64,000 nucleotides of DNA from Heterodontus francisci (lineage: Eukaryota), in contig NC_090387.1 of the NCBI RefSeq assembly GCF_036365525.1, forward strand, positions 88,515,691-88,579,690, given 5' to 3'. A model generated the notes under the pieces. The model saw nothing but the letters and a program-made list of their open reading frames with translations. It had not been told where the DNA came from and did not search any database. Of this stretch, positions 51-64,000 are shown piece after piece. The position numbers and the translations under genes are program-made. Numbering within the stretch: position 1 is the stretch's first letter; every line of letters begins with the position of its first letter.

Positions 51-102
51 ATGCTGAGAGCCTTGCTTCCTTACATGGTGTTTCTGGCAATCAGTTGTCC
101 AG
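51..102 (+). CDS. Exon 1: signal peptide [17 protein letters not shown]
   Basis: ATG at 51, hydrophobic leader, donor CCAG|gtaaat in phase 1, as typical for IgSF leader exons. Confidence 0.85.
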
Positions 103-12100: not shown

Positions 12101-15100
12101 AAGTAGAAGCTAATAAAACAATAGAGTAGCCAGCAAGGACCTCATCATAGATAATCCTGCTTGACCAATCCTATCGATTACTTTGAGCAAGTAACATAAA
12201 GAGTACATAAGGGTATTGTAGTAAATGAAATATATTTAGATTTTCAAAAGACCTTCGCTAAGGAATTGCATAGTTGAGTCATGAGTAATGTCAGAACATG
12301 TGGAGTGACGGCCCAAGTAGCAGAATGGATAGAAAACCCGCTACAAAACAGAAAACAAAAACTCGGGGCTAAAGGTAGCAATTGCGTCTGGTAAAAGCTG
12401 AGAAGTGGCTTTCCACAAGGATTGCTGCATGGACTATTATTGTTCATTATTTACAAAAAAGCATTAGGACTCGAAAATTGGGAGTGCAATTTCAAGTTTT
12501 CCGATGACACAAAATAAGGATGTAGTTAATAGAGTGAAGGGTTGTGACAAAATATATTTCTTAGGAAGTTAGGAGTTAGGAAGTAAGTTGAAAAGTAGGA
12601 CCTCAAAGGTAGCGATCTCAGGATTACTACCACTGCCACGTGCTGGTCAGAGTAGCAATAGCAGGATATATCGGATTAATACGTGGCTGAAGAGATGGTG
12701 TGAAGTGGGGTGGGGGTTTAGATTCCTGGGACATTGGGACCAGTTCTGGGGGAGGTGGGACCAGTACAAACTGGATGGGTTACACCTGGGCAGGACTGGG
12801 ACTGATGTCTTAGGGGGAGTACGTGCTAGCGTGGTTGGAGAGGGTTTAGCTAAAATGGCAGGGGGATGGGAACCTTTGCAAGGAGTCAGAGGAGGGGGGA
12901 TCAAAGACAAGAACAAAAGACAGTAAGGGTGATAAGAAAAGTGATAGGCAGAGAAATCAAGGGCCAGAATCAAACAGGGCCACAGTGAGAAATAGTGGGA
13001 AGGCGACAAGTAATGTTAAGAAGACAAGCCTTAATGCTTTGTGCCTTAACACGAAGAGCATTCGCAATAAAGTGGATGAATTAATCATGCAAATAGATGT
13101 AAACGGGGATGATATAGTTGGGATTACGGAGACATGGCTGCAGGGTGACCAGGGATGGGAAATGAACATCCAGGGGTATTCAGTATTTGGGAAGGACAGA
13201 CAAAAAGTAAAAGGCGGTGCAGCTGCATTGCTGGTTAAAAACAGGACATTAACGTAACAGTGAGGAAGGATATTAGCTCTGACGATCTGGAATCTGTATG
13301 GGTAGAGCTGAGAAACACTAAGGGGCAAAAACGATAGTGGCTGTTGTATATAGACCCACAAACTGTAGTGGTGATGTTGGGAATGGCATTAAACAGGAAA
13401 TTAGAGACACATGCGATAAAGGAACATCTGTCATTATGGGTGACATTAATCTGCACATAGATTAGGCAAATCAAATTAGTCACAATACTGTGTAAGAGGA
13501 ATTCATGGAGTGTTTAGGATGGTTTTCTGGGCCAATACGTTGAGGAACCAATTCGAGAACAGGCCATCCTAGAGTTTGCATTATGTAACGAGAGAGGAAT
13601 AATTGACAATCCAGTTGGGTGAGACCCCTTGGGGCTGAATGACCATAATATGATAGAATTCATCATCAAGATTGAGAGTGACATAGTTGATTCTAAGACT
13701 AGGGTCCTGAATCTTACTAAAGGAAACTATGAAGGTATAAGGCGCGAGATGGCTATGATGGACTGGGAAATATTATTTAAAGGGATGACGGTGGATAGGC
13801 AATGGCAAACATTCAAAGAGCACATGGATGAACTGCAACAATTGTTTATTCCTGTCTGGCACAAAAGTAAAACCGGAACAGTAGCCAAACCATGGCTTCC
13901 AAGGGAAATTAGAAATAGCATTAGATCGAAACAAGAGGCATACAAATTTGCCAGAAAAAAAACAACAGACCTGAGGATTGGCAGCAGTTTAGAATTCAGC
14001 AAAGGAGGACCAAAGGATTGATTAAGAAGGGGAAAATAGAGTACAAGAATAAGCTAGCAGGGAACATAAAAACTGACTGTAAAAGCTTCCATAGGTTGGT
14101 GAAGAGAAAAAGATTGGTGAAGACAGATGTAGGTCCCTTACAGTCAGAAACAGGGAAATTTATCATGGGGAACAAAGAAATGGCTGACCAACGAAATGCA
14201 TACTTTGGTTCCATCTTCACAAAGGAGGACACAAATATCATACCAGAAATGTTGGGGAACACAGGGTTTAGTGAGAGGGAGGAACTGAAGGAAATCAGTA
14301 TTAGTAGAGAAATGGTGTTGGGTAAATTGATGGGATTGAAGGCTGATAAATCCCCAGGGTCTGATAATCTACATCCCAGAGTACTTATGGAAGTGGCCGT
14401 AGAAATAGTGGATGCATTGATGGTCATCTTCCAAAATTCTATCGACTCTGGAAGAGTTCCTACAGATTGGAGCGTAGCTAATGTAACCTCACTATTTAAA
14501 AAGGGAGTTAGAGAGAAAACAGGGAATTATAGACCAGTTAGCCTGAGGTCGTTAGTGGGGAAAATTCTAGAGTCCATTCTCAAAGATTTTATAGCCGAGC
14601 TTTTGGAGAACAGTGGTAGAATCAGACAGAGTCAGCATGGATTTACGGAAGGGAAATTATGCTTGATAAATCTATTAGAATTATTCGAGGATGTAGCTAG
14701 TGGGGTTGATGAGGGACAGCCAGTGGATGTGTTTATTTGGACTTTCAGAAGGCTTTCGAAAAAGTCCCACATAAGAGATTAGCATGTAAAATTAAAGCGC
14801 ATGGGATTGAGGGTAGTGTATTGTGATGGGTAGAAAATTGGTTGGCAGATAGGAAACAAATTAATAAATGGGTCTTTTTTTCTGAATGGCAGGCAGTGAC
14901 TAGTGGGGTACTACAGGGATCGGTGCCAGGACCCCAGCTAGTCACAATATTTCTGAATGATTTAGATGAGGGAACTAAATGTAATATCTCCAAATTTGCA
15001 GATGACACAACACTTGGGATTTGAGTTGTCAGGAGGATACAGAGAAGCTTCAGGGTGATTTGGACAGGTTGAGTGAGTGGGCAAATGCATGGCAGATGCA

Positions 15101-18100
15101 GTATAATGTGGATAAATGTGAGGTTATCCACTTTGGTAGCAACAACAGGAAGGAAGATTATTATCTGAACGGCTATAAACTGAGAGAGAGGATTACGCAA
15201 CGATACCTGAGTGTTCTCGTACACCAGTTGCTGAAGGTAAGCATGCAGGTGCAACAGGTGGTAAAAAAGGCAAATGGTATGTTGGCCGTCATAGCGAGAG
15301 GATTCAAGTCCAGGAGCAGGTGCTTGTCTTGCTGCAATTATGCAGGGCCTTGGTGAGGCCACACCTGGAATATTGTGTGCAGCTTTGGTCTCCTTATCTG
15401 AGGAAGGATGTTCTTTCTATGGAGGGAGTGCAGCAAAGGTTTCCCAGGCTGATTCCAGGGATGGCGGGACTGAGGTATGAGGAGAGATTGAGTCGGTTAG
15501 GATTATATTGCCTGGAGTTCAGAAGTGTGAGGGGGGATCTCATAGAAACCTATAAAATTCTAACAGGACTTGACAGGGTGGATGCAGGAAGGATGTTCCC
15601 GATGGTGGGGGATTCCAGAATCAGGAGTTATAGTCTAAGGGTACGGGGTAAACCTTTCATGACTGAGAGGAGGAGAAATTCCTTAACCCAAAAAGTGGTG
15701 AACCTGTGGAATTCGCTATCACAGAATGCAGTTGAGGACAGTTGAGCAGTTTTGAAGAAGGAGTTAGATGTAGCTCTTGGGGCGGAAAGGATCAAAGGAT
15801 ATGAAAGGAAAGCGGAACAGGTTACTGAGTTGGATGATCATAATGAGTGGCGGAGCAGGCTCGAAGGGCCGAATGGCCTACTCCTGCTCCTATTTTCTAT
15901 CTTTTTATGTTAATACACTTCACGAATGCGTGTGCAAATGGCAAATTAACTTGGATATTGTTAATTGTGAAATGTCCCGCTTTAACAGGAAGGGCACAAG
16001 CACCTTGGAAATGAAATGTATAATCACTTACAGGAGCACAGATATATGGGGTTAAAGCTACGTAAATCACGAAAAGTAATGATGGTGGTTAATAAGACCA
16101 GAAATAAAGTGATAAAGGTCGAGAGGGATAGAATTGAAAAGCAGAAAAGTTATGTTGAAATTGTTTGTACATCCGTTGACCGCATTTGAATGTTGCAAAC
16201 AGCTCTGGTCTCCATATTGTAAAGAAGGTATAGAGGCACTCGTGATCTTACAAATAATAGTAGAAAATGGTGCACGAACTGAAAGGATTTGCTGCTGAGG
16301 AGTGCTTGAACAGGGTGGGGCACTTATCTGTAGAAAGTAGAAGACTGTGGTGCGACCTCATACAGGTATTTTAGATTGTAAAAGGGTTTGAAAAGGTAAA
16401 CGTAGAGAAGATGTTTCCACGTTCAGCGGAGACCAGAACTAGGGACCTTGTATATGGGATAGTTACTGAGAAATTCAATAAGGATTTCTGGAGAAAAGTC
16501 TTTACCGAAAGAGTGGTCAGAATGTGGAACGTGCTACCAGGATGACTAACTGAGGCAAATGATATAAGAATAAATGCATGAAGCAGAAAAAAGAATAAAG
16601 GGATATGTTGATAGTGTTAGATGAAGAAGGATGCAAGGAGGTTGATATAAAATGTTTAAGACCTGGTGGACTGAATGACATATTTCGGTTCTGTAAATGC
16701 AATATAACAATTTGAATAAACGTACAAGAATAATTTGAAAGTATTAGAATTGATAAACATTGGGAAACATTCAACTGTGAGATGATAGGCGTATAGAGTA
16801 ACTACATTCCCAGACGAATTAAGAAGCAAACACGGGACTTTTCTGAAATAATAACGAAATAAAATTAAACGTAAAGTAAGACTAACAAAGTGGATTACAA
16901 CAAATTCAGCGCAGATAATACGGAAGCAAATCAAATGGAATAAAGACAATGCAGTGGAAGCAAATAACAATAAAGAAAAATTAAGGTTCATGCAGGGATT
17001 GAACAAACGTTTGTAGATGACAATAATGACAATACTACTGCGTATACTAAACACTTAATGGGGACTTTTAAAAACTTTTGGCCAAAGTGAAAATCAGACA
17101 ATAATGATTGTTCACCCATTATATGGCTGGCCCGATTTCCCTTTCTTTGTATTTAATGGGAGCGAAAACGAAGAGTAAAGTATAATTGGGCGCCGAAATG
17201 ATACCTACAGTTTTAGAGATTTGAACCTGCTTAAAGTGCACCAGTATTTATCTCTCTATTCGCTGATCTCCTGTTCCAAATTGCACAAAAGGTAGAGGGA
17301 AAACTTGGAGATGTAGGTAGAATACTGTTTTGTCACTCTTCCCAGCGCATCATACAGCCGATGCGTTACTCTCGCTTTACTCTGGATGACGAAATTTTGC
17401 ACACTACAATCATGTACAGTATTTATTTCAGTCTGGTATGACATCTTTATGGCAAATAAGTCGACTTCTAGAGAAAATGTTCTATGAGAAAAATGTGTTT
17501 TTTATCTACAGGTCATGCATACAGAAGCTGATGAGCGGCTAAAATACGTCACTCTGAATCTCACTGACACCCAGAAAATTAATAAACCCAGAAGTACAGA
17601 AGGAAGTACAATAGAGACCCAGGTAGAGGGAACATTAGTCAATTGATGGAGCTGTGATTCCAATTCCAGAATAACTGCACAGTCTTTTGACGTCATTATC
17701 GCAACACGGTATACGTGTGTGTGTGTGTGTGTGTGTGTGCGTGAGAGATTACGTGCATATTAAGTGTACAGCCCAAACCAATTTTTATCAGTACTGTTGA
17801 ATTTGATCCATGATGGAATAGATTACATTTTTCACAGAGCAAATGATCTAACCAAGTGCATGGTTTCAATTATTTCAACAATCCATACATTATGGCAAAA
17901 AGGAAATTAATTAGTTAAATTAAATTATTGACTTAACAGTGAAAAATGGTGGGAGCACTGAAACATGTAATGATTTATTCATCGTATAATGACGTGAGAG
18001 ATTTTGAAACATAACTCATCGCTTGAACAATAAGTAGTTACCTTAACAGGAAAACTTTGGACTTAAGAGGATTTTAAAATTATTTGTACCGCTGATTTGA

Positions 18101-18267
18101 ATGGTCCTAAATATTGGCATTTACAGATGATGCAAGAGGTTACCGGGAATAACATTGTGTACGCAACTGCGGATTTTACAGGATCGAAAAGGACGGGGAG
18201 AACTCCACGGAAGGAAGTGAATGCAGTTTATGCACAGGTACAGCAGAGATTAGGTACAGAAAGATGA
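51..18267 (+). CDS. Non-rearranging VJ-C1 immunoglobulin-superfamily type I membrane receptor with ITIM/ITSM-like tail; join(51..102,303..614,4981..5286,7731..7826,10868..10911,17512..17622,18127..18267), 353 aa predicted
   Basis: All six introns are GT..AG with compatible phases (1,1,1,1,0,0). The summed exon length of 1062 nt is open from ATG 51 to TGA 18265-18267. Domain order is signal peptide, V-set, C1-set, TM, cytoplasmic tyrosine motifs. No transcript data, so cytoplasmic exons are inferred. Confidence 0.85.
303..614 (+). CDS. Exon 2: Ig V-set domain with germline-joined J-like G strand
   Basis: Acceptor ttttcgacag, donor G|gtgagt. Motifs: [21 protein letters not shown] and J-like NGTGTRLAV (G-x-G-T-x-L-x-V pattern, first Gly replaced by Asn). 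Confidence 0.93.
708..1735 (-). mobile_element. Decayed non-LTR retrotransposon (CR1/L2-group), RT C-terminus and 3' tail
   Basis: Minus ORF remnants GQSSQPQ...[10 protein letters not shown] resemble an RT domain. Tail ends in gaatgaataaaaataaa. Confidence 0.7.
1736..3488 (+). mobile_element. 5'-truncated CR1 (HER1-like) LINE
   Basis: ORF2 remnants DKSPGPD, NYRP, KAFDKV, MFADDT. 3' end atggtcggcatggac...(atgactct)n. Confidence 0.92.
4689..4742. repeat. Interrupted poly-C tract (G-quadruplex-prone on the - strand)
   Basis: Several runs of 4-15 C seen directly. Confidence 0.85.
4981..5286 (+). CDS. Exon 3: Ig C1-set domain
   Basis: Acceptor cttttgtag, donor G|gtaaga. Motifs: [33 protein letters not shown] (Ig/MHC C1 signature Y-x-C-x-V-x-H). 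Five N-x-S/T sequons. Confidence 0.93.
5500..6243. mobile_element. Composite of LINE RT fragments: CR1 (+, ~5560-5950) abutting a second LINE family (-, ~5950-6243)
   Basis: FADDTK-like remnant on +. Minus [11 protein letters not shown]...GVPQGSV...MFADDC. Confidence 0.75.
6430..6663 (+). mobile_element. Degenerate 3' half of a tRNA-derived SINE (same family as 19101..19490)
   Basis: Loose colinear similarity to 19270-19490 (gaaggaaa..., gagcaagccact, attagggatg). Confidence 0.5.
6975..7245 (+). mobile_element. Penelope-like element terminal (pLTR) fragments with a short inverted segment
   Basis: Matches the terminus of the GIY-YIG-bearing element at 10670-10800. 7102-7128 is an inverted copy of ~7197-7224. 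Confidence 0.7.
7127..7163 (+). ncRNA. Minimal type I hammerhead ribozyme (Penelope-associated)
   Basis: AGTT-CTGATGA-A-AGGTC/ACA/GACCT-GAAA-CG-T-T-GACT: conserved boxes, 5-bp stem II, palindromic ACGT stem III, 4-bp stem I. Confidence 0.7.
7317..7620 (+). repeat. Degenerate ~48-bp tandem repeat, about 6.3 units
   Basis: Units start with AGGAAA-like words at 7317, 7365, 7412, 7460, 7509, 7557, 7605. Confidence 0.8.
7731..7826 (+). CDS. Exon 4: connecting peptide and transmembrane helix [32 protein letters not shown]
   Basis: Acceptor ctagcag (NAGNAG), donor AG|gtaaga, phase 1-1. About 20 hydrophobic residues with no charged residue, followed by basic residues. Confidence 0.88.
8380..10800 (+). 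mobile_element. Penelope-like element 3' part (GIY-YIG endonuclease and terminus), split by a CR1 insertion
   Basis: Left arm [23 protein letters not shown]. Right arm (from 10060) [15 protein letters not shown]...KLEKQHLI. Terminus with decayed hammerhead at ~10670-10703. Confidence 0.85.
8534..10059 (+). mobile_element. 5'-truncated CR1 (HER1-like) LINE, relatively young
   Basis: RT ORF pieces including [10 protein letters not shown] and KFADDTK. Tail ggccgaatggcctgttcctgtgctgta(ttgttc)n. Confidence 0.93.
10868..10911 (+). CDS. Exon 5: short juxtamembrane cytoplasmic exon [15 protein letters not shown]
   Basis: Strong pyrimidine tract plus tag acceptor, donor CAG|gtaaat. Phase 1-0 bridges exon 4 to the phase-0 exon 6. 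Confidence 0.75.
11560..16705 (+). mobile_element. Old CR1 LINE (11560-12560 and 15912-16705) interrupted by a younger CR1
   Basis: Highly decayed ORF2 resumes after the insert at the matching RT position (after FSDDTK, resuming at CKWQINL). Confidence 0.75.
12563..15910 (+). mobile_element. Long CR1 LINE: ORF1 C-terminus (SGNH esterase-like), APE endonuclease and RT, frameshifted
   Basis: KLDGLHL in ORF1; GITETWL and NDHNMI in APE; KFADDT in RT; 3' tail cctactcctgctcctatt. Confidence 0.92.
17512..17622 (+). CDS. Exon 6: cytoplasmic exon with canonical ITIM LKYVTL
   Basis: Acceptor tttttatctacag. Encodes [37 protein letters not shown]. Donor CAG|gtagag is weak; read-through stops at 17646. 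Confidence 0.78.
17715..17739. repeat. (GT)n microsatellite in intron 6
   Basis: About 12 GT units seen directly. Confidence 0.95.
18127..18267 (+). CDS. Exon 7: terminal cytoplasmic exon with IVYATA and AVYAQV tyrosine motifs
   Basis: Acceptor catttacag. Encodes [46 protein letters not shown]. Colinear with exon 6. Confidence 0.78.
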   Translation: MMQEVTGNNIVYATADFTGSKRTGRTPRKEVNAVYAQVQQRLGTER

Positions 18268-20385: not shown

Positions 20386-21055
20386 TACAAGAATATTCAT
20401 TATCTTAGTATCCTTATTAAAGGAAATCTTAACCGTTTTAATGCACTCATTACTGGAAATGTAAACCGTTTAGACAACGAGATGGTGGTTAGCTAAGCAA
20501 AACTGGGGTGATCGTAACATGGAACATTGTTTACAGACCAAACATGGGATTTCTATGTACACCGAACTAAATGTGATTGACTTTAGCAAAACTGCAAAAT
20601 CATGAGGAACGGCAAATTTAATGAATACGAATAACATTAGAAATACTTTTATGAACATTGTAAAGAAACAATTGCAGAGAACTAATCATCTCATTCGTTG
20701 TCGGAATAGCCTTTGTGTCGATGTTATGATGTATTATTCATGTATTCTGTACGGCCGGAAGATTATCTTCATCCAACATTTTTCAGTGTAATTATGGATT
20801 CAATATATATACAAATAAATATAATACTAAAAACAAATGCTGTCGCCCACAATCATGTTAGACGTAGCAACAGTTCTTTGCTGAGCGACGTTTTCATGAC
20901 GACTCTAACATTCACAGCAGAATTTGAAGTTAAAACGTTCACTCAACTCGAATTTAACCCACGAATCTCTTTTCGGAATTATTTCAGTAAGCTATCTGGA
21001 ATAAATTGCGCATCTGCTGGTGGGCTGCGAACTGTTTGTATTCACATAGACTTTT

Positions 21056-46400: not shown

Positions 46401-46622
46401 TTTTCCAACTGTCCTGTTATCAATTCCTTCAAAGTAGGCAACTCATTTTTTTTATTTGAGTGCCTGACATGAAAGTCGCAACACATTTTTAAAGAAGTCA
46501 AACTCATTTTCAGATCACAATGCTGCATCAAATTTCTGTCTTTTCCTGAACAATAGTGTATGGACCAATTGTACAGCTCTTCACTAAATAGCACGTGAAA
46601 TATCGTAATGTAAATTACGCTT

Positions 46623-48845: not shown

Positions 48846-49464
48846 CAATTTAATTGCAAGTCATATTACTCAGACACCAATTTGTAAAGTGTTCATCAAT
48901 ATATAGATTCAAACTATTGCTCAGTCATATTTTAGCATGGTTTGTTCAGACGTAAATCAAATTATTTCTCTAAGTTCCGTTTCCACTTCAGTCAATAATA
49001 GATTTACATTTTCGTTATTCAGAAAGTTCACAGGGCATGCATTCCTTAAGAAGCTTCTGGCATGGTGCTCGCCAATAATATAAGTGACTTTAGAAAAAAA
49101 AGACGGTCAACTGTGTGATGTCTGAAACAGCCAATGATCAAAATTTTTTAAAATGCATCTTGTCCGATAATGACACGTAAATACTGCTGGTGAAGATGGT
49201 CAAAGGAACAAATTGCTTTTCTGTTGAATGTGCAGAACGTTTTATTGAATGCAAATAATGAAATGTTGGACGGACGGGTTGAAAGAAAAGTCAGACAGAA
49301 TTGTGAAGTGGCAACGACCAATGAGAATGAAACTATTTTAGGATATTTTCGAGCACGGATGGAACAGCAAACGGGATTGATCATGAACTCCGAAGGGAAG
49401 ACAGGCAGTGCTTCAGACTGATATCCCAAGTGCTAGATCAGACAGGATAACAAGCAGTGACCTA

Positions 49465-49595: not shown

Positions 49596-50532
49596 CAATG
49601 CAGAAAGTGTGATTTGTCATGGCCTCAACATCCAAGATGGGAACAAATGTCTTTGGAGGGAAATGCTCAGTCGCCAAGTAAATTGATCATTGATTGGCTT
49701 CTAATCCTGTCCTGTTGGATAATATCGTAATAAGATCGCACTTTAATGCTGAATCAAATACGGGATTATGGATAGAACACCCGACTAAACCTTGAGTAAT
49801 CATAATAATTTTATAAAAAAAAACATTGCAAGTTCTCAATTCAAACCAAAATCAAAACAGGAAAGCCACGAACCAGTCAGCAACTTTGGAGAGAGCAGAC
49901 AGATTAGCACTTGGGGCTCGGTTTATCTTCTGAACATAAGCATGAAGCATGAATATTTTCAAGTGACATGGTATATGGAATGGCTGAACAAAGAAGAAAA
50001 CTATTTCTGGAATGATAATCCGATGAAGTAACAATTAATGTCAGGCAATACAATGAAACATTCATAAATTAAAGACAAGGCAGTAATCGAAATCCCATGC
50101 AGAAAAAAACACAAAGTAAAAAGAGGAGTCAGGGAAATAGAAATATAGATATTTTCCCTTGTTTGACAGTACAAGTTAAATCACGAGAAAGTATATGACG
50201 GAATCTGACTGTCGACAGATATGCTGGAGAATATTACAATACCATGTCAAACTTGATGCAGAGTGCAAAGGGAATGAGAACAGTGTTGACAGTTCCAAAG
50301 AGGCCGATTGTGATGTTCAATGGCACACGTTCCAAGAGTTTGAAGCTGGAATGGAACGTGCCCACGACAAATTGGTTGAAGAAAAGAACTCGTTTCACGA
50401 CTTTGGAAAGGAACGGAAGGCTGAAAAAGGCAGCAGCAGGCTTAAATTCATAAACGACGTAAATGATTCCGTGATGTGCATATGGATCAAATCTTTTAAG
50501 CGCATTCATGTCTTCTTAATTTAGCTGCTGGT

Positions 50533-50648
50533 TTATACCATTGTGTAGACTAGACTTGTGTCTTTGTGTTTAGACTTCGACGTTTGCTTAGAACCAGTCA
50601 AATTCAGAGCAAGGTAGTCAGTTTGCTGCCAGTGGTGTTCTGTCTGGT
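50533..50648 (-). CDS. Terminal cytoplasmic exon of a paralogous IgSF receptor (TDYLAL, LVYTMV motifs)
   Basis: Minus-strand acceptor atgttttacag. Encodes (D)QTEHHWQQTDYLALNLTGSKQTSKSKHKDTSLVYTMV*. Same 23-residue Tyr-Tyr spacing as exon 7, and shares Y-x-x-LNLT with exon 6 and TGSK with exon 7. Confidence 0.72.
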
Positions 50649-51293
50649 CTGTAAAACATAAGGTGAAGATCTGTTAATTTTCCTTCATAAAGCTAAAGGA
50701 AAATTTCTTCAATTTGCTTTCCGATATCATCACAAAACCAATTATTGTTTCCACATGTGAACTGAGAGATACATCTGCATATATTGTGCTTTCTTCCCGT
50801 TAATTCGGAACTTCATGTTCCCTTTAATTGACCAGATAAAGAGAAGCGCACATCAGTTTGTCCTTAGATGCCTCTCGTTCTTTCCACAAAGTTAATGTTT
50901 AGCATTCATTAACTTACTTTTCCGCAGTTTTGAGAAGTCAAGAAACCCGTGTCATCATTGGCAATTGAGGCAACACTTTTGTATTGTAGTTCTAATAGCT
51001 ATCTACTGCTCGCCAGGCAGCAAAATTCAGAAGCTACTGGATTTGACGATTCTAAACTGTTCCGAAACTAACAAACATCATTGTTCAATATGTTGAAAGT
51101 TAGCAAAGAACCTCTGCATCTATTCTATTTCCTGAAGAATAGGTTTTACGCTTCAATGCAAAATATTCAATTTTCTGTATTCACAAAGAAGATGCGCTGT
51201 TATAAATTGAGAATGCAGTTTGTTTTCTTCATTAATTCAATCTGCAATTGGTAACAAAAATAAATAAAAACAAAAACATGGATTGCACGTTAC

Positions 51294-51359
51294 CTTGTTC
51301 GGCAATACAAGGCATACAAACTAATTCGAGGGGAAAATACTCAATAGCATCTTCCTTAC
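51294..51359 (-). CDS. Penultimate cytoplasmic exon of the paralogous receptor, (G)KEDAIEYFPLELVCMPCIAEQ
   Basis: Pyrimidine-rich acceptor ...ctatactctaag, donor CAAG|gtaacg. Phase 1-1 joins in frame to 50648. Contains the ITIM-consensus IEYFPL, and the end CIAEQ resembles exon 5 end RIAQ. Confidence 0.55.
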
Positions 51360-51989
51360 CTTAGAGTATAGGGTGTAACAACAGGATAAACAAAAGCAGT
51401 CCCTGACGTGTATAGTTAAACGGTTGAATTTTTTAAAAAAGTAAAGAAAAATAATGTCCAGTCGTAAACAGAAAACAAGGTTAGTAATTGTGCCTCCTAT
51501 AACAAGAGGAAGGCAACCACCTCGATTGAAGGCACCAAAAGCTAACACTTAGGATTGTATTTACATTGAATCGTCGAAGTACACAGTATGTTTCTAAGTA
51601 TTTCGTAGCAAATTATTTTTGCCTAGAACGTAGTTATTGTTCTTTTTTATTCAACAAATGTGCCAATCAACTTATACAGAGCATGTTCAGGTAAATAACA
51701 ACAACAAAAAAAGAATGGCCAGTTAATCTGTGTTGATTTTTTTTGACAAAAGCACAGATCGCAAGAATGTCATGTTATTTTTAAAATCGTGTCCTCGGAT
51801 CTTCCATGTAACATTGAACAACCACAGGAAGCCTTGGTTCGTCTTTTGATCTGCACCACTGCAACTAAGACAATGCAACACACGCTAAGCATTGCACGTG
51901 AATATCAGCCTACATTATGATGTCAGCTCCAGCAGTGTACCTTCAAAAAATTACCTACAGAATTAAGTTGAGAGTGCAACAGCTACTTG

Positions 51990-54900
51990 AAATCCACGTT
52001 TCGGACGTGGAGTGGCGGCTGGGGACACAGTGGAGCATCCGCGAGGCCGAGATCATCGTGGACAGCACGTACAAGGAGGTAGTCACACCGCAGTTAAAGA
52101 CTGCTCAGGCAGAAAGGGAATGGGTGACCGCCAGTCAGAGTGGAAGAACGAGACAGGTAGTGCAGGAGTCCTCTGTGTCCATTTCCCTCTTGAACAGATG
52201 TTCCGCTTTGAATACTGTTGGGGGAGATGCCTTTTCAGGGGAATGCAGCAAGTGCCAAGTCTGTGGCACCACGGGTGGCTCAGCTGCAGAGGAGGGGAGA
52301 AAAGGAGAGCTATAGCGATAGGGAATTCTATTGTAAGGGGTGCAGATAGGCGTTTCTGTGGCCGCAAACGTGACTCCAGGATGATATGTTGCCTCCCTGG
52401 TGCTAGCGCTAAGGATGTCATGGAGCGGCTGCAGGACATTCTGAAGGGGGAGGGTGAAAAGTCATATGTCATGGTTCATATTGATACTGAAGACATAGGT
52501 GGAAAGAGGGATGAGGTCTTGCAACAAGAATTTAGGGAGTTAGGTAGCAGATTAAAAGGCAGTACCTCAAAGATTGGAATCGCGTGCCATGTGCTAGTAA
52601 GTATAGGAATAAAAGGAGGAGCAGACGAATGTGTGGCTGACGAGATGGTGCAGAAAAGAGAGCTTTAGTTTCCTGGATCACTGGGTCTGTTTCTGGCGAA
52701 GGAGGGACCTGTACAGCTCGAACGGGTTGCACCTGAACTGGGACAGGGCCAACATTCTTGTATGGAGGTTACCTGGTGCTGTTGGTTTGGGGTGGGAGGC
52801 GGTGCTGTGGGGTTCAAACTAATCTGGCAAGGGGAAGGGATACAGATTGGGGGTACAGCAGGGATGATGCACAGCCAAATATAGAAGAGAAACTAAGTCA
52901 GTCTGGAAGGCAGAGCAAATATAGACCTGTTAAGGCACAAGCGAATAATTCAAGGCTGAACTGCATCTATTTTAACTCATGGAGTCTTATAAGTATGGTA
53001 GATGAATTGTGGGCGTTGATTAACACGTGGGAATATGATAGCATTGCTACCACAGAGATATGTTGAGGGAAGGGAAGGGCTGGCAGCTTACTATTCCAGC
53101 ATACAGAATGTCCAGTCGTGACAGGGGGTGGGTGGTGTATTAGAGGAGGTGGAATTGCACTATTGATCAATTATTGCAGTAAGGAGGGATGATATCTTAG
53201 AAGGTCCCTCAAATGAGGCCATATGGGTAGAACTTACAAAACAAAAAAGCACGAAGTGGGTAATCACTTTGCTGGGAGTGTACTACAGGCCTCCAAACAG
53301 CCAGGGAGAGATAGAGGAACAGATATGTAGGCAAATCGCAGAGAGATGTGAAAATAATAGGGCAATAATAATAGATTTCAATTTCACCAATATTAACTGG
53401 GTTAATCTTAGTGACAAAGGCTTAAAGGGGTTGGAATTCTTCAAGTGCATACAGGAGAGCTTTATGAGCCAGCACGAAGAAAGTCCTACAAGAGAAGGGG
53501 CGGAGGGGGGGGGGGGGCGGGGGGCGGTACTGGACCTATTTTAGCGAAAGCAGCGGAACAAGTGGAGGAAGTGTCAGTGGAGGCACATTTCGGGGATAAT
53601 GACAAGAGCTCTGTGAGATTTAAAGTAGTTATGAAAAGGACAAAGATCGGCCACAAATAAAGATACTGAACTGGGGGAAGGCAGATTTCAATATGATAAA
53701 ACAGGATCTGACCAAAGTGGACTGGGAGCAGCTACTTGTAGGGAAGTCTACATCAGACCAGTGGGAGTTATTTAAATAAGAAATAGGGAGGGTTCAGGAC
53801 CAACATGTTCCCGTAAAGGTGAAGGGTAGGACCAATAAGTCCAGCGAACGCTGGATGTCAATGGATATAGAGGATTGGTTAAGGAAAACAAAAGAAGTGT
53901 ATGGCAGATTCAGAGGGCTGAAAACAACAGAGGCACTAGAATAGTATAGAAAGTGTAGCGTGGTACTTAAAAAATAATTGGGGAGCGGAGGGTATGCATG
54001 AAAAGACACTGGTGGGCAAGGTAAAGGCAAATTCCAAGCGTTTTATAAGTATATTAAGGGCAAGAGAATAACCAGGGGAAAAATAGGACCCATTAGGGAC
54101 CAAATTGGCAATCTGTTTGTGGAGCTGGAAGATCTACGTGAGGCTTCAAATGATTACTTTTCATCTGTGTTCACTATGGAGAAGGACGATGTATGTGGGG
54201 ACATCAGGGAGGGGGATTGCAATATACTTAAACAAATTAGCATTGAAAGGGAAAAGGTATTAGCTGTTTTAGGGGGCTTAAACTTGGATAAATTCCCAGG
54301 CCCAGATGAGATGCATCCCAGGCTCTTTTGTGAGGCAAGAGAGGAGATTACGGGGCCTCTGACACAAATTTTCCAATACTCTGTGGCCACAGGAGAAGTG
54401 CCAGAGGATTGGAGGACAGCGAATGTGGTACCAATATTCAAGAAAGGTAGGAGGGATAAACCAGGTTAATTACAGGCAAGTGATTCTATCATCAGTGGTT
54501 GGGAAACTATTGGAAAAAAATCTGAGGGACAGGAGTAATCTCCAGTTGGAGAGGCAGGGATCAACCAAGGATATTCAGCATGGCTTTGTCAAGGGGAGAT
54601 CATGTCCAACAAATTTAATTGAATTTATCGAGGATTGACTAGGTTTGTAGATAAGGGTAAAGCAGTTGATGTAGTCGACATGGACTTCAGTAAGACTTTT
54701 GATAAGGTCCCACATGGGAGATTGGTCAAGAAGGTAAGGACCCATGGGATCCAGGGCAATTTGGCAAATTGGATCCAAAATTGGCTTAGTGGCAGAAGGC
54801 ACAGGGTGATGGTCAAGGTTTGATTTTGTGGTTGGAAGCCTGTGGTCAGTGGTATACTGCAGGGATCAGTGCTGGAACCCTTGGTGTTTGCAGTATATGT

Positions 54901-55850
54901 TAATGATTTAGATGTGAATATAGGAGGTATGATCAGTAAGTTCGCAGATGACACGAAAATTGGTGGTGTCGCAAATTGTGAGGAGGTAAGCCTTAAATTA
55001 CAGGATGATATAGACGGGCTGGAAAAATGAGCAGAGCAGTGATAAATGGAATTTAATCCTCAGAAGTGTGAAGTGATGCATTTTGGGAGGACTAACAAGA
55101 TATAGGAATATACAATGGATGGTAGGACCCTAGGAAGTACCGAGAGTCCGAAGGACCTTGGTGTACTTGTCCATGAATCACTGAAGGCAGCAGCACAGGT
55201 AGATAAGGTGGCGAGGAAGGCGTATGTGATACTTGCCTTTATTAGCCGAGACATAAAATATAAAATCAGGGAGGTTGTAATGGAGCTGTATAAAATGAAA
55301 GTTAGGTCACACCTGGAGTACTATGTACAGTTCTGGTCGCCACACTATAGGAAGGATGTGATTATACTTTAGAGGGGGCAGAGGAGATTCACCAGGATGT
55401 TGCCTGGGCTGGAGCATTTCAGAGAGACTGGATAGGCTAGGGTTGTTTTCCTTAGAGCAGAGAAGGCTGAGGGGGGACCTGATTGAGGTATACAAAATTA
55501 TGAGTGTCATAGATAGGGTAGATAAGAAGAAACTTTTTTCCCTTAGCAGAGCTGTCGATGACCAGGGGACATAGATTTAAGGTAAGGGGCAGGGGGTTTA
55601 GAGGGGATTTGAGGAATTGTTTTTCTCTCCGAGGTTGGTTGGAATCTGGAAAACTCTGAAGGGGTGGCAGTGGCAGGAACTCTCATTACATTTATGTCGT
55701 ATTTAGATGAGCAGTTGAAACGCCATAGCATCCAAGGCTACGGGTCCAGTGCTGGAAAATGGGTTTGAGCATAGATAGGTGCTTGTTGGCTGACACGCAC
55801 ATGGTGGGCCGAAGGTCCTGTTTCTGTGCTGCATAACTCAATGACTCTAG
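51990..55850 (+). mobile_element. Near full-length decayed CR1 LINE (ORF1 SGNH esterase-like plus ORF2)
   Basis: AIAIGNSIVRG and NGLHL in ORF1; GVYYRPPN APE; KFADDTK RT; HER1-like tail. Confidence 0.92.
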
Positions 55851-56629
55851 ATACAGCAAAGGATGGGATGAAAAAAGAGAATATGAAAAGTTTAGGGAAA
55901 GTTTCAAAAATAAAAAGCAAAGAGGAAGTTAATAAATTAAATTATCAAGGAATAAGGAAAAGGAATAGTTACATATCCTTCAAACACATACATGACAAAT
56001 GAAACGTCCTGATAGTGATAGGCCCACACATGATAAAATCACAGATAATGGCAGAAAACGTGTAAAAATAATTTATTTTCTAAATATTTGTGTTTTTATC
56101 ATATTGGAGATTTTTTAAATTCTGCAATATAAAATTAGTTTATCATGACCAGACAGTTGGTTCCAGTAATTATAAATTTGGCAAAACGTTAAAATACAAA
56201 TACACCTCATTTAAAAGGTATAACAGTTCTGAGGATTTTTACAGCAAGCGTAACAGGACAAGTTCTGTTCAGTTCAGTAATTTTAAACTGATTACAGTTA
56301 GTGGTGGCTTCAACAGCACACCATATGCAGAAGCGCAAATCAGTGACAGCAACTTCTGGATTGCCGTATTTAGCTGCACTTTAGCTGTACCGAATCCAGA
56401 AGTTTCTGTCAGTTTCACAGTTGTAATAAAGATGAAACTCATTGCTTCACAGAAATTGACAACTACTTCCGGGGACCACAGATGCGCAACATAACACTGA
56501 TATCCAGAAGTTGCTGCCCGTGATTCTATATTTCGCCAGACGGGGCGTTGTTGAGAGACAATCTTTCCCTGCCCCGCACCACCCTCCACCCCAGCAAATT
56601 GCAATCAATGGGAAATCACCTGAATAAAC

Positions 56630-57340
56630 TAGAACTTGCAATCTTCAGCTGACAGTTTCCTTCCATGAACCATTGGACAATTTAGAGCTTGAATATTGCT
56701 GAAAACAGAGACACTTTGTCGAAGATTTCCGTCTTGCAGTCATCAGGACAATTTGAAAGAATACCAAAGTAAGAGTACGAACAGAGTGCTGATTGGTTGG
56801 CAAGTGGAGTCTCATTGGTAGAGGTGTTGCCATGGAGAATGCACCAGCTTATTGTGACTTTGTTTGAAATTTAAACCCAGCAGCTTGACTCTGATTGGTC
56901 AAGGCATTATCCGGAAGAATGACCCAGCAAATGACTGCCACTTATTTTGTTTAGCTGAAACATGCACGATGTGTGTACATGCTCTTTCTGCCTGCAAATA
57001 ACACGGCCCTGTGTATTAATATATGCAGCTTCCAGTATGTATTAGCACACTGAGGATTATTTAGCAAATGTTGTCCAATCGCAAAATCACATTTAATGTT
57101 GGACACTGTGTTTTGACTTTTGCAAGCACCGGCTCGTAGGCTACGGACTGTACCTTGCTGTTGCAAACAGCAGAAGCGACACGTTGATATGATCCACAAG
57201 TCTTTGGTGCATACGGCCTATATAACTAGCATCACACTGGGACTGAAATTCAAACATCACATTAGTCATTTGTGTGACAGCAGAAGAGCTTTTTGGCTTG
57301 ACTGCAGCATCCTGTTTGACTGCATCGTAGCAACGTGAAA
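56630..57340 (-). mobile_element. Penelope-like element 3' part (same family as 23170..24200)
   Basis: TNVMFEFQSQCDASYIGR GIY-YIG remnant; hammerhead-like ttgtc-CTGATGA-ctgcaagacg-GAAA-tcttc-gacaa at 56716-56751. Confidence 0.8.
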
Positions 57341-57719
57341 CATCTAGCGCCATCTGCTGGCCACATTGTTTGAGGTTTTTTTTGTCGAAGTTCCAGGAAC
57401 AAATTACGTGATTAAGTGATTCAAAATGCTGAGCAATTTTGGGCTTAAGTACCTGATGTGAGTAAATATAATACGCCACATCTCCTCTATAATTTATGGT
57501 TATCTATTTATCCCGCCGCACAATTGCATCTCCACCGATTACAAAGGCCAAACCACCAGCTGCTGGGAATTATTCATGAATTCCGTGCAATAGCGCTTGC
57601 TTGGAGGCTCTCTTAATATGATTATCATATTTCCAGGCGCACCAGGAAATAAAGTCAGTTGATTTGGTGTTTTATCGCAATTAAAAAAAAATCTTCACCC
57701 AATTATGAACCAGAAGCTC

Positions 57720-59835
57720 AAAGCTCTGTATTATTTTCGGAGCCACGCGCAAATTGGCATAGGGCAATGAAGATTACAGAAATGCATGCGTGGCTCAAAG
57801 GCTGGTGTGGTAGAAGTGGGTTCCGGTTCTTGAGGCAATAGAACAAGTACTGGAGAAAGTGGTGACTGCATCATTGGGATAGTCTACACCTGAACCATGC
57901 TGGGGCTGGAGTTCCAGCGAGCTATATACCTAGGGGAGTACAGAGGGTGTTATACTGAATACTGGGGGTAAGGGATCAAATTTGGGAAGATATGTTAAAT
58001 CAAGGAGAAGAGACAAGTCAAGAGAGAAAGGTATTAATATGGGAAATGATAAACAGACTGTGACAGGAAGAGACAGAGCATGCAAATCTAAGAGTAAATC
58101 AACAGATAAGGCTGGAGGTTACAAAAATAATAAATGGAAAATAAAGTAAAGGCTCTGTATCTGAATGCATGGAGCATTCAAAATAAAACACATGAACTGA
58201 GAGTGCAAATAAAAATAAACAAATATGATCTGATAGCCATTACAGAGACATGGCTGCATAATGACATAGATTGGGAACTGAATATTGAAGAGTACACGGC
58301 ATTTAGGAAGGACAGGAAGTTAGGAAAAGGTGGAGGGATAGCTCTGTTAATTAATGATGGCATTAGCACAGTACAGAAGGATGACCTAAGTTCAGGAAAC
58401 CAAGATGTGGCAGCAGTTTAGGGAGAGATGAGAAGCCCTTGTGGGATCATGTGCCACAGGGATCTTTGCTGGGGCCTCAGTTGTTTACAACTTATATAAA
58501 TGACTTAGATGAAAGGACTGAAGGTATGGTTGCTAAACTTGATGATGACACAAAGATAGGTGGGAAAGTAATTTGTGAAGGGGACATAGGGGGAGGGGGG
58601 GAGCGGTGCGTCAAGTGAGTGGGCAAATACCTGGCAAAGGGAGTATAATGTGGGAAAGTGTAAAGTTGTCCACTTTAGCTGCAAGAATACAAAACAAACC
58701 TATCATCTGAATGGTGAGAGATTGCGGATCTCTTAGATGCATGTGCTGGATGCATGATCTGGATGTCCTAGTGCATGAATCACAAATGTTTAGTAAGTAG
58801 GCACAGCACGTAATTAGGACAGCTGATAGAATGTTATCTTTTATCATGAGGGGAATTGAATACAAAAGTAGGGAGGTTATGCTTCAACTTTGGGGTGGCA
58901 CAGTGGCGCAGTGATTAGCACTGCAGCCTCACAGCTCCAAGGACCCGGGTTCGATTCTGGGTACTGCCTGTATGGAGTTTGCAAGTTCTCCCTGTGTTTG
59001 CGTGGGTTTTCTCCGGGTGCTCCGGTTTCCTCCCACAAGCCAAAAAGACTTGCAGGTTGGTAGGTACATTGGCCGTTATAAATTGTCACTAGTATAGGTA
59101 GGTGATAGGGAAATATAGGGACAGATGGGGATGTTTGGTAGGAATATGGGATCAGTTTAGGATTAGTATAAATGGGTGGTTGATGGTCGGCACAGACTCG
59201 GTGGGCCGAAGGGCCTGTTTCAGTGCTGTATCTCTAATCTAAAAATCTAATCTGTACAGGACATCGGTGAGACTATATATGAAGTACTGTGTATGGTACT
59301 AGTCTCCTTATTGAAGGAAGGATGGAAATGTATTGGAGGCAGTTATGAGAAGGTTGATTGGACTAACACCTGGAATGGGCGGACTGTCTTATGAGAAAAG
59401 ATTGGACAGGTTGGATTTGTATGCCCTGGAATTTGAAAGAGTAAGAGGTGACTAGATTGAAGCATATAGAATCTTGGGGGGTCTTGCCAGGGTAGATGTG
59501 GAAAGGATGTTTCCCCTTCTGGGATCATCTAGAACTAGGGGTCACTGTTTAAAAATAAGGGGTCGCCCATTTAAGACAGAGATGAGGAGCCTTTTTTTTT
59601 CTCTCAGAGTGCCGTGAGTCTTTGGGATTCTCTTCCTCAAAAGACAGTGGAAGCAGAGTCTTTGAATATATATAAGGTAGAGGTAGATAGATTTTTGATA
59701 CGCTAGGGGTGAAAGGTTATAGGGGTGGGTGGAAATGTGGAGTAATCAGTTCAACCATGAGCTTATTGAATGGCTGAGCCGGCTCGAGGAGCCGAGTGGC
59801 ATACTCCTGCTCCAAATTCATATGTCCGTATGAAT
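57720..59835 (+). mobile_element. Internally deleted CR1 (ORF1 end, APE start, RT 3' end) interrupted by a SINE
   Basis: AITETWL APE motif; KLDDDTK RT remnant; CR1 tail. Confidence 0.85.
58891..59252 (+). mobile_element. HE1-like V-SINE
   Basis: Near-identical organisation to 47420..47748; tail gggccgaagggcctgtttcagtgctgtatctc(taatc)n. Confidence 0.92.
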
Positions 59836-60349
59836 CCTGCAGTGTATTTTCTACTTCGGTTATGATTTCTGTTATGAATATAAATCATCTTCAAAATTCA
59901 AAAGCATCCCGATGGTAGGTTCTTCAACTCTACGCGTATTCTGCATAAATGATGGATGAATCAGATGTAACAACATACTTAGAGATGCAGTATATGGCGT
60001 GAATTCTGCAATACTTTTATGCTGGTGGACGCCCATTTTACGATCTTGCATATTCAAATAACATTGCACCTGAATCCTTATCATCTGGAAGCTGGATGGA
60101 ACGCTCTTATGAGCATGTGTCAGATCATACTATACAATGCACACTAAGTCTGGGCCTGATGTTACGGCTCTGCTGTTGACAGTCTCCCACAATCCAAAAA
60201 TTAAATTATAATTTTCATGTATTCAGGGCCACAATGTCCAATTAGGGGACAGAACAGAGATCCGAATGAGGAAATACCTAATGGTAACCCATTATCTGTA
60301 CTAAAGACGTCGGGGAATCTCAAATTATTCCTAATATAAGCACATATCT

Positions 60350-62605
60350 TAGACACATGGAAGAATAGGTGCAGGAGTAGGCCATGCGGTCATTTGGGCC
60401 TGCTCTGCCATTCCATACCAACATGGTTGACCATCCAAACTCATCCTGTTCCCACTTTATCCCCATATCCCTTGATATCATTAGCCCTCTGAGCTACATC
60501 TAACCCTTTCTTGAATATATTTCATGACTTGGCCTCAACTGCTTTCCCTGTTAGAGAATTCACTCTCTGGGTGAAGAAATTCCTCCTCAACTCAGACCTA
60601 AATGGCTTACCCTTTATCCTTAGACTGTAACACTTAGTCCTGGACTCCCCCACCATCGGAAACATCCTTCCTGCATCTAGTCTGTCCAGTCCTGTTAGAA
60701 TTTTGTAGGTTTCTATGAGGTTCCCTCTCATTCTTCTAAACTCTTAGCGCACAGAAGACTAATTGACCCAATCTCTCTTCATATGTCAGTCCTGCCATCC
60801 CAGGAATTAGTCTGGTGAACCTTTGATGCACTCACTCCATAGCAAGAACATCATTCATCAGATAAGGAGACCAAAACTGCACACAATACTCCAGATGTTG
60901 TCTTACCAAGGCCTTGTATAATTGCAGCAAGACATCCTTGCTCCTGTACTCAAATCCTCTCGCTATGATGGCCAACATAACATTTGCCTTCTTAACTGCC
61001 TACTGCACCTGCATGCTTGCTTTCTGCGACTGGTGCACAAAGACACCAAGGTCTCGCTGCACCTGCCCCTTTCCCAATCTATCACCGTTCAGATATAATC
61101 TGCCTTTATGTTTTTGCCTCCAAAATCGATAACTCACATTTATCCACATTATACTGCATCTGCCATTTATTTGCCCACTGACTCAACCTGTCCAAATCAG
61201 ATTGGAGGTTCTCTGCATCCCCCTCACATCTCACATTCCCACCTAGATTTGTGTCACCTACAAACTTGGGTGTATTACATTTAATTCCCTCATCTATATC
61301 ATTAATTTATATTGTGAATAGCTGGGGTCCTAGCACTGATCCCTGTGTTGCCCCACTATTCACTGCCTGCCACATGGAAAAAGACCCGTTTATTCCCACG
61401 CTTTGTTTCCTGTCTGCCAAGCAGTTCTCTATCCATGTGAGTACCTTACCCACAATCCCATGTGCTTTAATTTTGCACGCTAATCTCTTATGTGGGAGCT
61501 TATCGAAAGCCTTCTGAAAGTCCAGCTGCACCACATCCACTGGTTGTCCCTTATCTATTCTACTAGTTACATCCTCAAAAAATTCCACTAGATTTGTCAA
61601 ACATAATTTGTCCTTCGTAAATTCGTGTTGGTTTTGTCCAATCCTGTCATTGTTTTCCAAGTGCTCTGTTATTACATCTTTTATAATGGGCTCTAGCATT
61701 TTCCACACTACCGATGTCAGGCTAACCAGTCTGTAATTCCCTTTTTTCTCTCTACCTCCTTTGTTAAATGGTGGGGTACACGAGCTACGCTCCAATCCAT
61801 TGGAACTGTTACAGAGTTAATGGAATTTTGAAAAATGACAAGCAATGCATCTACTATTTCTAGGGCTACCTCCTTCCATACTCTGGGATGTAGATTATCA
61901 GGCCCTGGGAATTTATCAGTCTTCAATCCCATCAATTCCCCTAACCAAATTTCCCTACTAATACTGATTTCATATGGTACATCCTCCTCACTATACCCAA
62001 TGTTCCCCAATATTTTTGGCAGGTAATTTATGCCCCCCCCCTTTTGTGGAGACAGAACCATAGTAGTATTTAATTGGTCTGCCATTTCTTTGATCCCCAT
62101 TATAAGTTCCCCCGTTTCTGAATGTAAAAGACCCATATTTGTCTTTACTAATCTTTTTCTCTTCTTATATCTATAGAAGCTTTTTACAGTCAATTTTTAT
62201 GTTCTCTGTCAGCTTACTTTCATACTCAATTTTCTCCAACTTAATCAATTCCGTTGTCCTCCTTGGCTGAAATCTAAACTGCTCCCAGTCCTCAGGTTGC
62301 TCCTTGTCCTGGCCATTTTATATTACTTCTCCTTGGATCTAATACTATCTCTGATTTCTTTTCTAAGCCACGGTGGAGCGACCCTTCCTGTTTTATTTTT
62401 GCGCCAGACAGGAATGAACAATTGTTTTAATTCAACCATATGCTCTTTAAATGTTTGCTATTGGCTATCCACGTTAACCCTTTAAGTAACGTTCCTCAAT
62501 CTATCATAGCCAATTCGCACCTCACACCTTCATAGTTTCTTTTATTTAGATTCAAGACCCTAGTCTCGGAATCAACTCTCTCACTCTCCATCTTAATGAA
62601 GGCTT
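60350..62605 (-). mobile_element. 5'-truncated CR1 LINE related to 12563..15910
   Basis: Minus ORFs 61717..62193, 61307..61795, 60522..60731. Confidence 0.92.
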
Positions 62606-63114
62606 CCAGCGGGTTTTTTTTTCCAGTTTTGTTAAGCTATTCATCAGTCTTGACTAATAACGTTGAGCAGATAAATTGAGATGGTAGTTTGAGAATTTAA
62701 ATCAATGTTTTAAAAATGAAGAAATGATGCAAAATGAAAAACAACAACTGTTGCTGAGACAGTTGAATTGTTCTAATAAATCTAACTTATCCAATAATGT
62801 CCTTTTGTTCCAACCCGGTCTATCATACATTTGGTCGCAGACCAAGCCAGAATGATTGAATTTCAACTGTCCTATGAAGTTGCCTAGAAAGTCATTCAAT
62901 TGTACCAAGCTGCTCTCAGTGGTTCAAGAAGGTGTCCCATCAGCCCATCATGAATGAAAGCAAAATGTGCGCTGTACCATCAAGTCTACCTTTTCAAGCT
63001 TCCATGCCACCGCAGTTTGTTCGGCTAACTGCCAGAAGAGCTTGCAATTTTATGTTGTTTGAGGGAGCCAGCTTGTGACAGTGGACTGCAAGCTGGCCAC
63101 AAAGCATAAACGTT

Positions 63115-63430
63115 TCCATACGAGCATGCAAACAGACACATTAGGAGCAGGAGTAGGCCACTCAGCCCCTCGAGCCTTCTCCACTATTTAATAAGATCAT
63201 GGCAAACCTGATTATATCTTCAATTCCACATTCCCACCTACCCCCAATAACCTTTCACCCCCTTGATTATCAACAATCTATCTACCTCAGCCTTAAAAAT
63301 ATTCAAGACTCTGCGTCCACCACCTGTCGAAAAAGAGAGTTCCAAATACACACGACTGTCTTAGAGAGAGAGAAAAAAACTCCTCATCTCTGTTTTAAAT
63401 GGGTGACTCCTTTCTTTGAAAGTGACCCCA
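63115..63430 (-). mobile_element. CR1 3' end
   Basis: aggagcaggagtaggccactcagcccctcgagc is the reverse of the CR1 tails at 15850-15890 and 59780-59815. Confidence 0.8.
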
Positions 63431-64000
63431 GAACAGAATTTTACACCCGCCAAAAGATTGAGCTGGTGGCGGGGTGAGGTGGGGTGCGGTGGGAGGGCAG
63501 AGGTGGTGTGTAAATAATTTACACTGGGCAGCGACAGTGAGAAACAGCCCGCACACCCCGGGCCAAGCAAGAGCCTTAGGTGCCTGCCAATATGGGGAAT
63601 TTACGGATAGCTGGCAGGTGGCTGAGGCCTCAGAAAAGCTGTCTGATAAAACTAGGCTGCCTTCTGGCGACCTGTAGGAGGCCCTCATGATAAAGCAAAC
63701 TGAGCCCCACCGACGGCCGCCCCCAATGCCCCAACCACCGCCACAGTTCAACACGCCTCCCACCCCCTAATTGACCTCCCCCCCCCCCCTGCCTTGCAAC
63801 GGCCAGACCGATTGCCCCCGTGAGGCTTCTAAAACGGACTTGTTTTCCGGTGCTCTCCGTCATCGTCATCCTTGAGCTGGGCTGCAGTCTCAGCAGTGGC
63901 CACTGCTCCCAGTAGCACTGCTGGTACTATGAGCTATCGGCTCGCTGATTAGCTGGCAGCGCCATTTGTCTCGTCTTCCTGCCTCAATGAGATGGAAGTC
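63431..64000. repeat. GC-rich interspersed repeat of unassigned class, running off the window
   Basis: Abrupt switch to GC/CpG-rich sequence truncating the CR1; no coding signal. Confidence 0.35.

Follow-up and report, generated by a model that had tools for sequence, protein, structure and literature searches.

Recruitment of SHP phosphatases through ITIMs is established for ITIM receptors. Activating KIR are traced, in the sections of Abi-Rached and Parham (2005, PMC2213150) that deal with their origin, to the gain of a basic transmembrane (TM) residue and the destruction of the membrane-proximal ITIM on the same branch. Where the basic TM residue sits matters for the choice of adaptor, according to the part of PMC1440944 that concerns this residue. 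Antigen-receptor-like genes that do not rearrange have also been described: the relevant passages of PMC10751288 present UrIg, PRARP and NKp30 as non-rearranging VJ(-C1) genes of the MHC region, and in those passages the shark cluster reported below is not named. The literature that we searched (main texts) contained no description of this VJ-C1 family, and an earlier description may exist.

The locus studied here lies in the 6.0-Gb genome of the horn shark Heterodontus francisci. We analysed a window of 64,000 nucleotides (C17:88515691-88579690, where C17 is contig NC_090387.1) together with the 10 kb that follow it, locus L001, and compared the receptor genes found there with their relatives elsewhere on C17 and in other species.

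Gene B and its front half beyond the window

The plus strand of the window carries gene A (51..18267), a complete family member of 7 exons and 353 aa that is convergent with the gene under study. Its exons lie at 51-102, 303-614, 4981-5286, 7731-7826, 10868-10911, 17512-17622 and 18127-18267 and encode a leader, VJ, C1, an uncharged TM and a tail with two modules. The second tyrosine is gone from exon 6 of gene A; in the VJ-C1 family the second tyrosine of the first module is placed at the exon junction and forms no ITIM there. Elsewhere in the window we found LINE fragments that are mutually 64-89% alike (1700-3500, 8500-10050, 13600-15900, 21000-22900, 46600-48850, 54000-55850 and 60300-62600) and two remnants (27800-30950 and 41700-42800) that we take to resemble LTR-retrotransposon integrase regions; the LINE label is likewise our assumption.

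A sequence-only reading of the window had proposed that a convergent paralog occupies the minus strand and that its V, C1 and TM exons should lie past position 64000. Both expectations were borne out. The leader, VJ, C1 and TM exons of this gene, gene B, are intact on the minus strand of L001, 6-9 kb past the window end. The leader exon (L001:8625-8571), the V exon (L001:8229-7918), the C1 exon (L001:7094-6786) and the TM exon (L001:5898-5785), which carries an arginine, are each open and have GT/AG ends, and their 790 nt contain zero stops, frameshifts or lost GT/AG dinucleotides. The first 42 nt of exon 5 follow at L001:5257-5216, with the donor after L001:2432. Intron 5 (51360..64000 on the minus strand, continuing past the window end) is LINE-rich and colinear with that of a sister gene, gene C. 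The VJ exon is a single exon of 312 nt that holds both the V and the J-like ends, and is thus unsplit and non-rearranging; gene B has lost the second Gly of its J-like motif, which gene A retains. Both genes exceed the Pfam V-set and C1-set cut-offs, and they are 41% identical over V+C1.

An identical V is found in the RefSeq protein XP_067905013.1 (P0001), which is the model of gene B. This model stops in exon 5, 16 residues past the TM exon and with zero tyrosine, and uses neither of the two tail exons of the sequence-only reading. Ahead of the family leader it has about 135 extra residues, which are probably an annotation artefact. Searches of the genome with the last exon of gene B returned gene B and gene C only, and those with its TM exon returned gene B, gene C and one further gene only. 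Orphan pseudo-exons, with no upstream Ig exons and no expression, had been named as the alternative to a second receptor; the Ig exons proved intact, and RNA-like contigs lie on the last exon and the 3′ UTR. We conclude that gene B is a real gene and that the exon model first proposed for it is wrong.

Tail exons of gene B and its sister gene C

Exons and introns of gene C (C17:88.725-88.739 Mb, XP_067905931.1) are colinear with those of gene B, and the two genes are 91% identical over V+C1. A single contig of 848 nt from run X1 runs through C1, TM, exon 5 (44 nt), exon 6 (111 nt) and exon 7 of gene C into the UTR, and its loose end agrees with the exon 5/6 junction. The TM of gene C is uncharged and its tail motifs are LTYLAL and LVYAAV. 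Two tail modules are also present in the zebra-shark relatives P0008 and P0017, and on the tree genes B and C cluster with zebra-shark P0008, P0017 and P0019 (support 100/90). We therefore take two tail exons as ancestral for the gene B/C branch.

Runs X1-X3 represent one sample, RNA by guess, and their contigs report presence only, some having been filtered; blanks on the 66-nt segment discussed below, and the lack of B-type contigs on the TM exon and exon 5 of gene B, were therefore not counted as evidence. Three GT-AG joints mark the material as spliced RNA, and it is C-type contigs that supply the C1-to-TM and V-to-C1 ones. In one of the three runs, 50274-50649 and 49620-50301 are spanned by RNA-like contigs that show 0 differences. 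The B-type contigs of this one run reach a depth of 19-41 over exon 7, the UTR and the beginning of C1, with two intron pieces at about 4. Run X2 gave no contigs on exons and run X3 gave C-type contigs only. The 3′ UTR of gene B (49620..50532, minus strand) extends past 49620, and poly(A)-signal-like hexamers occur at 49747 and 49246.

In the sequence-only reading, the tail of gene B was assembled from two minus-strand segments, 51359-51294 (66 nt) and 50648-50533 (116 nt). The pair does have AG/GT ends and joins in phase 1 to give the peptide that had been quoted, but the status of the 66-nt segment as an exon is unsupported. Likewise, the reported similarity to exons 6 and 7 of gene A holds for the last exon only, whose scores against gene A exons 7 and 6 were each reached by 0 of 2000 shuffles. 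The 66-nt segment has no clear likeness to them: against gene A exons 5, 6 and 7, respectively, 1065, 87 and 1930 of 2000 shuffles scored equally high. Its counterpart in gene C measures 67 nt and matches it at 82%, close to the 84-87% of the flanking intron, and the observed 848 nt of the spliced contig match the length predicted without this counterpart (848 nt) and not the length predicted with it (915 nt). Because the counterpart is unspliced in gene C and the divergence is intron-like, the 66-nt segment (51294..51359, minus strand) is most likely intronic, together with the IEYFPL and CxxC motifs that it contains; these two motifs, once counted as part of the tail, would drop out of it. 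The acceptor of the segment can equally be read as a strong donor-like site. At 51496-51360, a 137-nt candidate exon also had a good splice-matrix score, but was rejected since its position is intron in gene C. The HHWQQ stretch of the quoted peptide is a shifted-frame reading of ancestral exon 7 sequence.

That the 66-nt segment is nevertheless a true exon, giving a pre-duplication tail with three tyrosine motifs and a CxxC, seems to us very improbable. The join is open, and the 19.1-kb interval holds only 2 stop-free phase-1-1 segments that score at least as high as the 66-nt one (itself and one inside a LINE), by a crude splice matrix with the threshold set by the 66-nt segment itself. It is therefore not a common chance object, and since a 1-nt loss relative to gene C makes it frame-preserving in gene B, the birth of a new exon is conceivable. 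However, the segment is unlike the exons of the family, and the notion of a single two-tyrosine exon in the pre-duplication state is contradicted by the two-module relatives and by a dead exon 6, which remains between the two segments. Gene B has thus lost a module.

Dead exon 6 (50773..50883, minus strand, 111 nt), which the sequence-only reading overlooked, is the first tail module. Its acceptor has changed from AG to GG and it carries two in-frame stops, while its homologue is spliced in gene C. Exon 7 (50533..50648, minus strand), the second tail module, has phase 0 as its ancestral phase, as in gene C. Its first ITIM contains a 1-nt deletion near 50616, and its end is trimmed by a Lys-to-stop change. 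Because of the deletion, phase 0 now ends after 14 residues, none of them a tyrosine, and phase 1 yields the two tyrosine motifs noticed earlier; the latter frame is open solely through the deletion and needs a direct splice onto exon 7, either from the TM exon or from the 66-nt segment. The deletion is no assembly slip, because the B-type contig 50274-50649 carries it with 0 differences and 0 gaps. Altogether, the ancestral tail exons of gene B (284 nt) have received 5 disabling point lesions and a LINE.

The LINE (L001:2434-5215, 2.8 kb, antisense to gene B) splits exon 5 at 2 nt before its donor and is flanked by a 6-nt target duplication; it is presumably of the CR1 type. It keeps a 905-codon open frame, and exact copies lie on many contigs, with at least 24 other copies identical over 801 of 801 tested bases among the best 40 scored of 539 candidates. 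The element may be active and its insertion polymorphic. Since exons 6 and 7 of gene B differ from those of gene C by 12-18% and the copies of the LINE are exact, the tail decay is far older than the LINE, which was ruled out as its cause. The loss of the ITIMs would accordingly have preceded the insertion.

The gene B transcript could take three forms. If exon 5 is read through into the LINE, the tail has 16 residues; if an allele free of the LINE splices exon 5 onto exon 7, the tail is short and has zero tyrosines; and if TM is spliced to exon 7, the frame is open and both tyrosine motifs are retained. In the three runs of the one sample, no contig crosses a junction onto exon 7 of gene B. 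The B contig starts one base ahead of the exon-7 acceptor, which weakly suggests a partner of exon 7 that ends in GG, like the exon-5 donor. By the third form the deletion would restore the frame and combine both tyrosine motifs with the TM Arg in a dual receptor, for which KIR2DL4 is the comparison. We consider this outcome unlikely. The skip keeps both motifs, skipping is favoured by the disabled state of both exon 5 and exon 6, and the last exon and UTR are present at a depth of 26-41 with the deletion; on the other side, the RefSeq model terminates in exon 5, and the contig start would fit a GG partner alongside the AG one, so that the skip would supply at most one of two forms. Moreover, the first motif has Asp where gene C has Thr and Thr where gene C has Leu. 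No candidate emerged when the protein database was searched for the shifted-frame tail, but the same search also missed gene C (9 shared residues) and so carries no weight.

The TM arginine and the receptor family

The TM of gene B, known from the assembly alone, has Arg where gene C has Gly and other relatives have Ala or Thr, and the Arg is therefore derived. The longest charge-free run is 13 residues in gene B and 22 in gene C, so any helix of 19-21 residues in gene B must bury Arg or Lys. The Arg lies 14 residues from the cytoplasmic boundary (15 in gene D, described below), compared with 17-18 residues in 15 of the 18 Arg-bearing database proteins, a set that includes gene B. It is thus one helix turn off the usual place in the family.

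The clustered multigene family of VJ-C1 receptors that had been suspected from the window exists: in the stretches of C17 that we analysed, clusters at 71.0, 76.1-77.1, 88.4-90.3 and 92.5 Mb contain 47 C1 and 43 V exons, with one more V found later. Sharks and rays have relatives of these genes, as do a chimaera and the coelacanth. TM exons were located for 40 of the 47 genes, and 13 of these 40 have an Arg, 14-18 residues above the cytoplasmic boundary, which supplies the charged-TM partners that the sequence-only reading had suggested looking for. No tail module was found within 5-27 kb downstream of 9 of the 13 Arg-bearing genes, whereas tyrosine-bearing tail exons were located for 22 of the 27 Arg-free ones. 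One Arg-bearing gene (C1 at C17:76404839) retains a C-terminal tyrosine motif and shares its ITIM deletion with an Arg-free gene, and two others have broken Ig exons. Family C1 domains were present in 93 database proteins, 75 of them with a TM. The ITIM is absent in 14 of 18 proteins with a basic TM residue versus 23 of 57 without (Fisher p 0.007, kinship ignored), a count that misses ray members with Arg outside the interval used and includes truncated models. A zeta-family TM exon with Asp (L101:1477-1581, C10) is the sole zeta/FcR-gamma-family TM exon found in the genome. The family is one of paired activating and inhibitory receptors, for which adaptor binding, phosphatase recruitment and a shared ligand are predicted.

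A second gene resembles gene B. Gene D (L004-L005, C17:88617147-88627340, plus strand) stands head to head with gene B, and its twin D′ (L041, C17:89299468-89290340, minus strand) is 98% identical to it over V+C1. Relative to D′, gene D has gained an Arg and lost both last-exon tyrosines, each of the three codons differing by two bases. D′ has one module, its exon 6 having been removed by deletion. Gene D is the cleaner candidate switch of the two. Further pairs lie at C17:88.81/88.90 Mb (V+C1 93%) and 76.81/76.85 Mb (94%). B/C, D/D′ and these two pairs are each sisters on the tree (support 100/99-100), from which 7 of the 47 C1 exons, having no full V, were omitted, and in which the row with C1 at C17:76397381 is mispaired with a neighbour's V and is to be ignored. 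The pair of L028-L030 and L032-L033 (C17:88.809-88.824 and 88.897-88.900 Mb, 93% over V+C1) is of the classic kind: the inhibitory member has four tail modules, with identical peptides, as the outcome of a tandem duplication (about 1 kb) that is recent, and the activating member a canonical TM Arg and a short tail.

Charge gain and ITIM loss on one branch, with the inhibitory state ancestral, were seen in gene B and gene D against their sisters and outgroups; gene B fits the ITIM-less activating definition only in the forms that contain exon 5. In the zebra shark, P0019 differs from P0017 by an Arg in the TM and by a last module that reads off-frame. P0019 and P0018 of the epaulette shark have a TM of the inhibitory type with Arg one residue beyond that of gene B, and P0018 resembles two genes fused by annotation.

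Our best explanation, in which we place about even confidence, is that gene B is an inhibitory receptor turned activating (or non-inhibitory) partner of gene C. In the order that we propose, duplication from a C-like inhibitory gene would have been followed by the loss of exon 6 and, in exon 7, the 1-nt deletion within the first ITIM, by which the normal phase loses both remaining tyrosines, then by the Gly-to-Arg change in the TM and last by the LINE, which would have cut the tail again. Gene C would bind ligand and recruit SHP phosphatases via its ITIMs, and the Arg of gene B may associate with the paired Asp residues of an ITAM adaptor of the zeta/FcR-gamma type. A ligand that silences the cell through gene C would then activate it through gene B; alternatively, gene B may compete as a decoy. 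This switch is favoured because the lesions are confined to the tail and the 790 nt of ectodomain and TM exons are clean, because gene D and P0019 repeat the combination of Arg gain and tail damage, and because the family has classic activating members, an association of Arg with ITIM loss and a zeta-family exon in the same genome.

Several observations weigh against the switch. The Arg of gene B is off the usual position, and position matters for adaptor choice; for this reason neutral decay is the main rival. By this account gene B would be a transcribed copy on its way to a pseudogene, or a decoy that does not signal, and its Arg an unpaired product of drift, which we regard as possible rather than probable. 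Gly-to-Arg is a single-base change within the reach of drift. Amino-acid constraint on gene B relative to gene C also appears weak, with synonymous/nonsynonymous codon differences of 3/6 in V, 4/14 in C1 and 6/7 in TM (small counts) and a nonsynonymous excess in C1, TM and exon 5. A very young LINE is tolerated within a coding exon, and read-through into it would put a stop upstream of a junction, so the transcript would likely be a target of decay. The cluster is of the birth-and-death kind and contains broken members, among them the two Arg-bearing genes with broken Ig exons, and one Arg-bearing gene keeps a tyrosine motif. Finally, the exon 7 junction was unseen in the single RNA-by-guess sample. 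Neutral decay fits less well with the placement of all lesions in the tail, with a V that is 96.5% identical to that of gene C when the adjoining introns are 87-92% identical, and with the same paired changes in gene D, made there by two-base codon swaps.

Comparison with known receptor systems

Many relatives carry the automatic RefSeq name 'tyrosine-protein phosphatase non-receptor type substrate 1-like', and SIRP-alpha (2wng) was among the top PDB matches (E 1.5e-19), with a score near those of UrIg, Ig light chains and B7-H6. When the V domain alone was used as query, the PDB matches were generic Ig ones only, and on the tree SIRP-alpha is one long-branch row that serves only as an outsider. 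SIRP-alpha/beta and the shark family share a VJ-type V followed by C1, a tail with tyrosine motifs and the existence of paired forms. The SIRP ectodomain is, however, V-C1-C1, whereas the shark genes have one C1, as seen from the V-to-C1 and C1-to-TM joints in contigs, and their activating forms use Arg. Human SIRP genes presumably neighbour NSFL1C and PDYN. No marker of this neighbourhood was found on C17: SEP-domain genes lie on C16 and C5 and one opioid-precursor match on C5, in searches that recovered fewer paralogs than expected. NUP93-family exons are at C17:68.71-68.72 Mb, on the chromosome of the receptor clusters. Because of the single C1, the use of Arg and the lack of a SIRP-neighbour match on C17 in these searches, we did not file the shark family as SIRP.

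UrIg, PRARP and NKp30, as described in the passages introduced above, have in common with the shark family the unsplit VJ exon and the V-C1 layout of antigen-receptor chains. They differ in that the shark family comprises about 40 genes, whose signalling ends are of the ITIM or Arg kind, and resides on the NUP93 chromosome. Fc-alpha-RI, which uses FcR-gamma, resembles the activating shark members in its TM Arg and short tail, and the usual Arg position of the family suits this adaptor as far as the treatment of the residue in PMC1440944 goes; the Arg of genes B and D lies 2-3 residues deeper than this usual position.

A broader reading is tentative, and we hold it with some doubt: that this is an undescribed paired family of about 40 shark VJ-C1 genes in which activating members have arisen repeatedly, that genes B and D are side-by-side switches with a new Arg position, and that gene B may flip by splicing between ITIM-less and frame-rescued ITIM forms. 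If gene B is merely decaying, it is an ordinary birth-and-death event, with the lesson that when two segments of a single window join in frame, the result can be a damaged exon read in a shifted frame. Should the switch be functional, the rule of repeated origin of activating from inhibitory receptors, known from KIR and Ly49, extends to cartilaginous fish and holds in a receptor that is built, as VJ-C1, like an antigen-receptor chain. B/C and D/D′ are matched pairs for testing how deep a new TM Arg can lie for an ITAM adaptor, and for testing ligands.

Gene B shares with the activating KIR (2DS/3DS) and Ly49, in those parts of the published accounts that cover their origin, near-identical ectodomain pairs and recurrent origin in a tandem cluster. 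It differs from them in its shark VJ-C1 ectodomain, in having Arg and not Lys, in being known from sequence alone, and in a tail lost via splice-site decay, a frameshift and a LINE. By analogy with these accounts, so far as they describe activating KIR, the shark family can be regarded as an addition to the known class of paired IgSF receptors, in which the proposed switch would mirror the origin of activating KIR.
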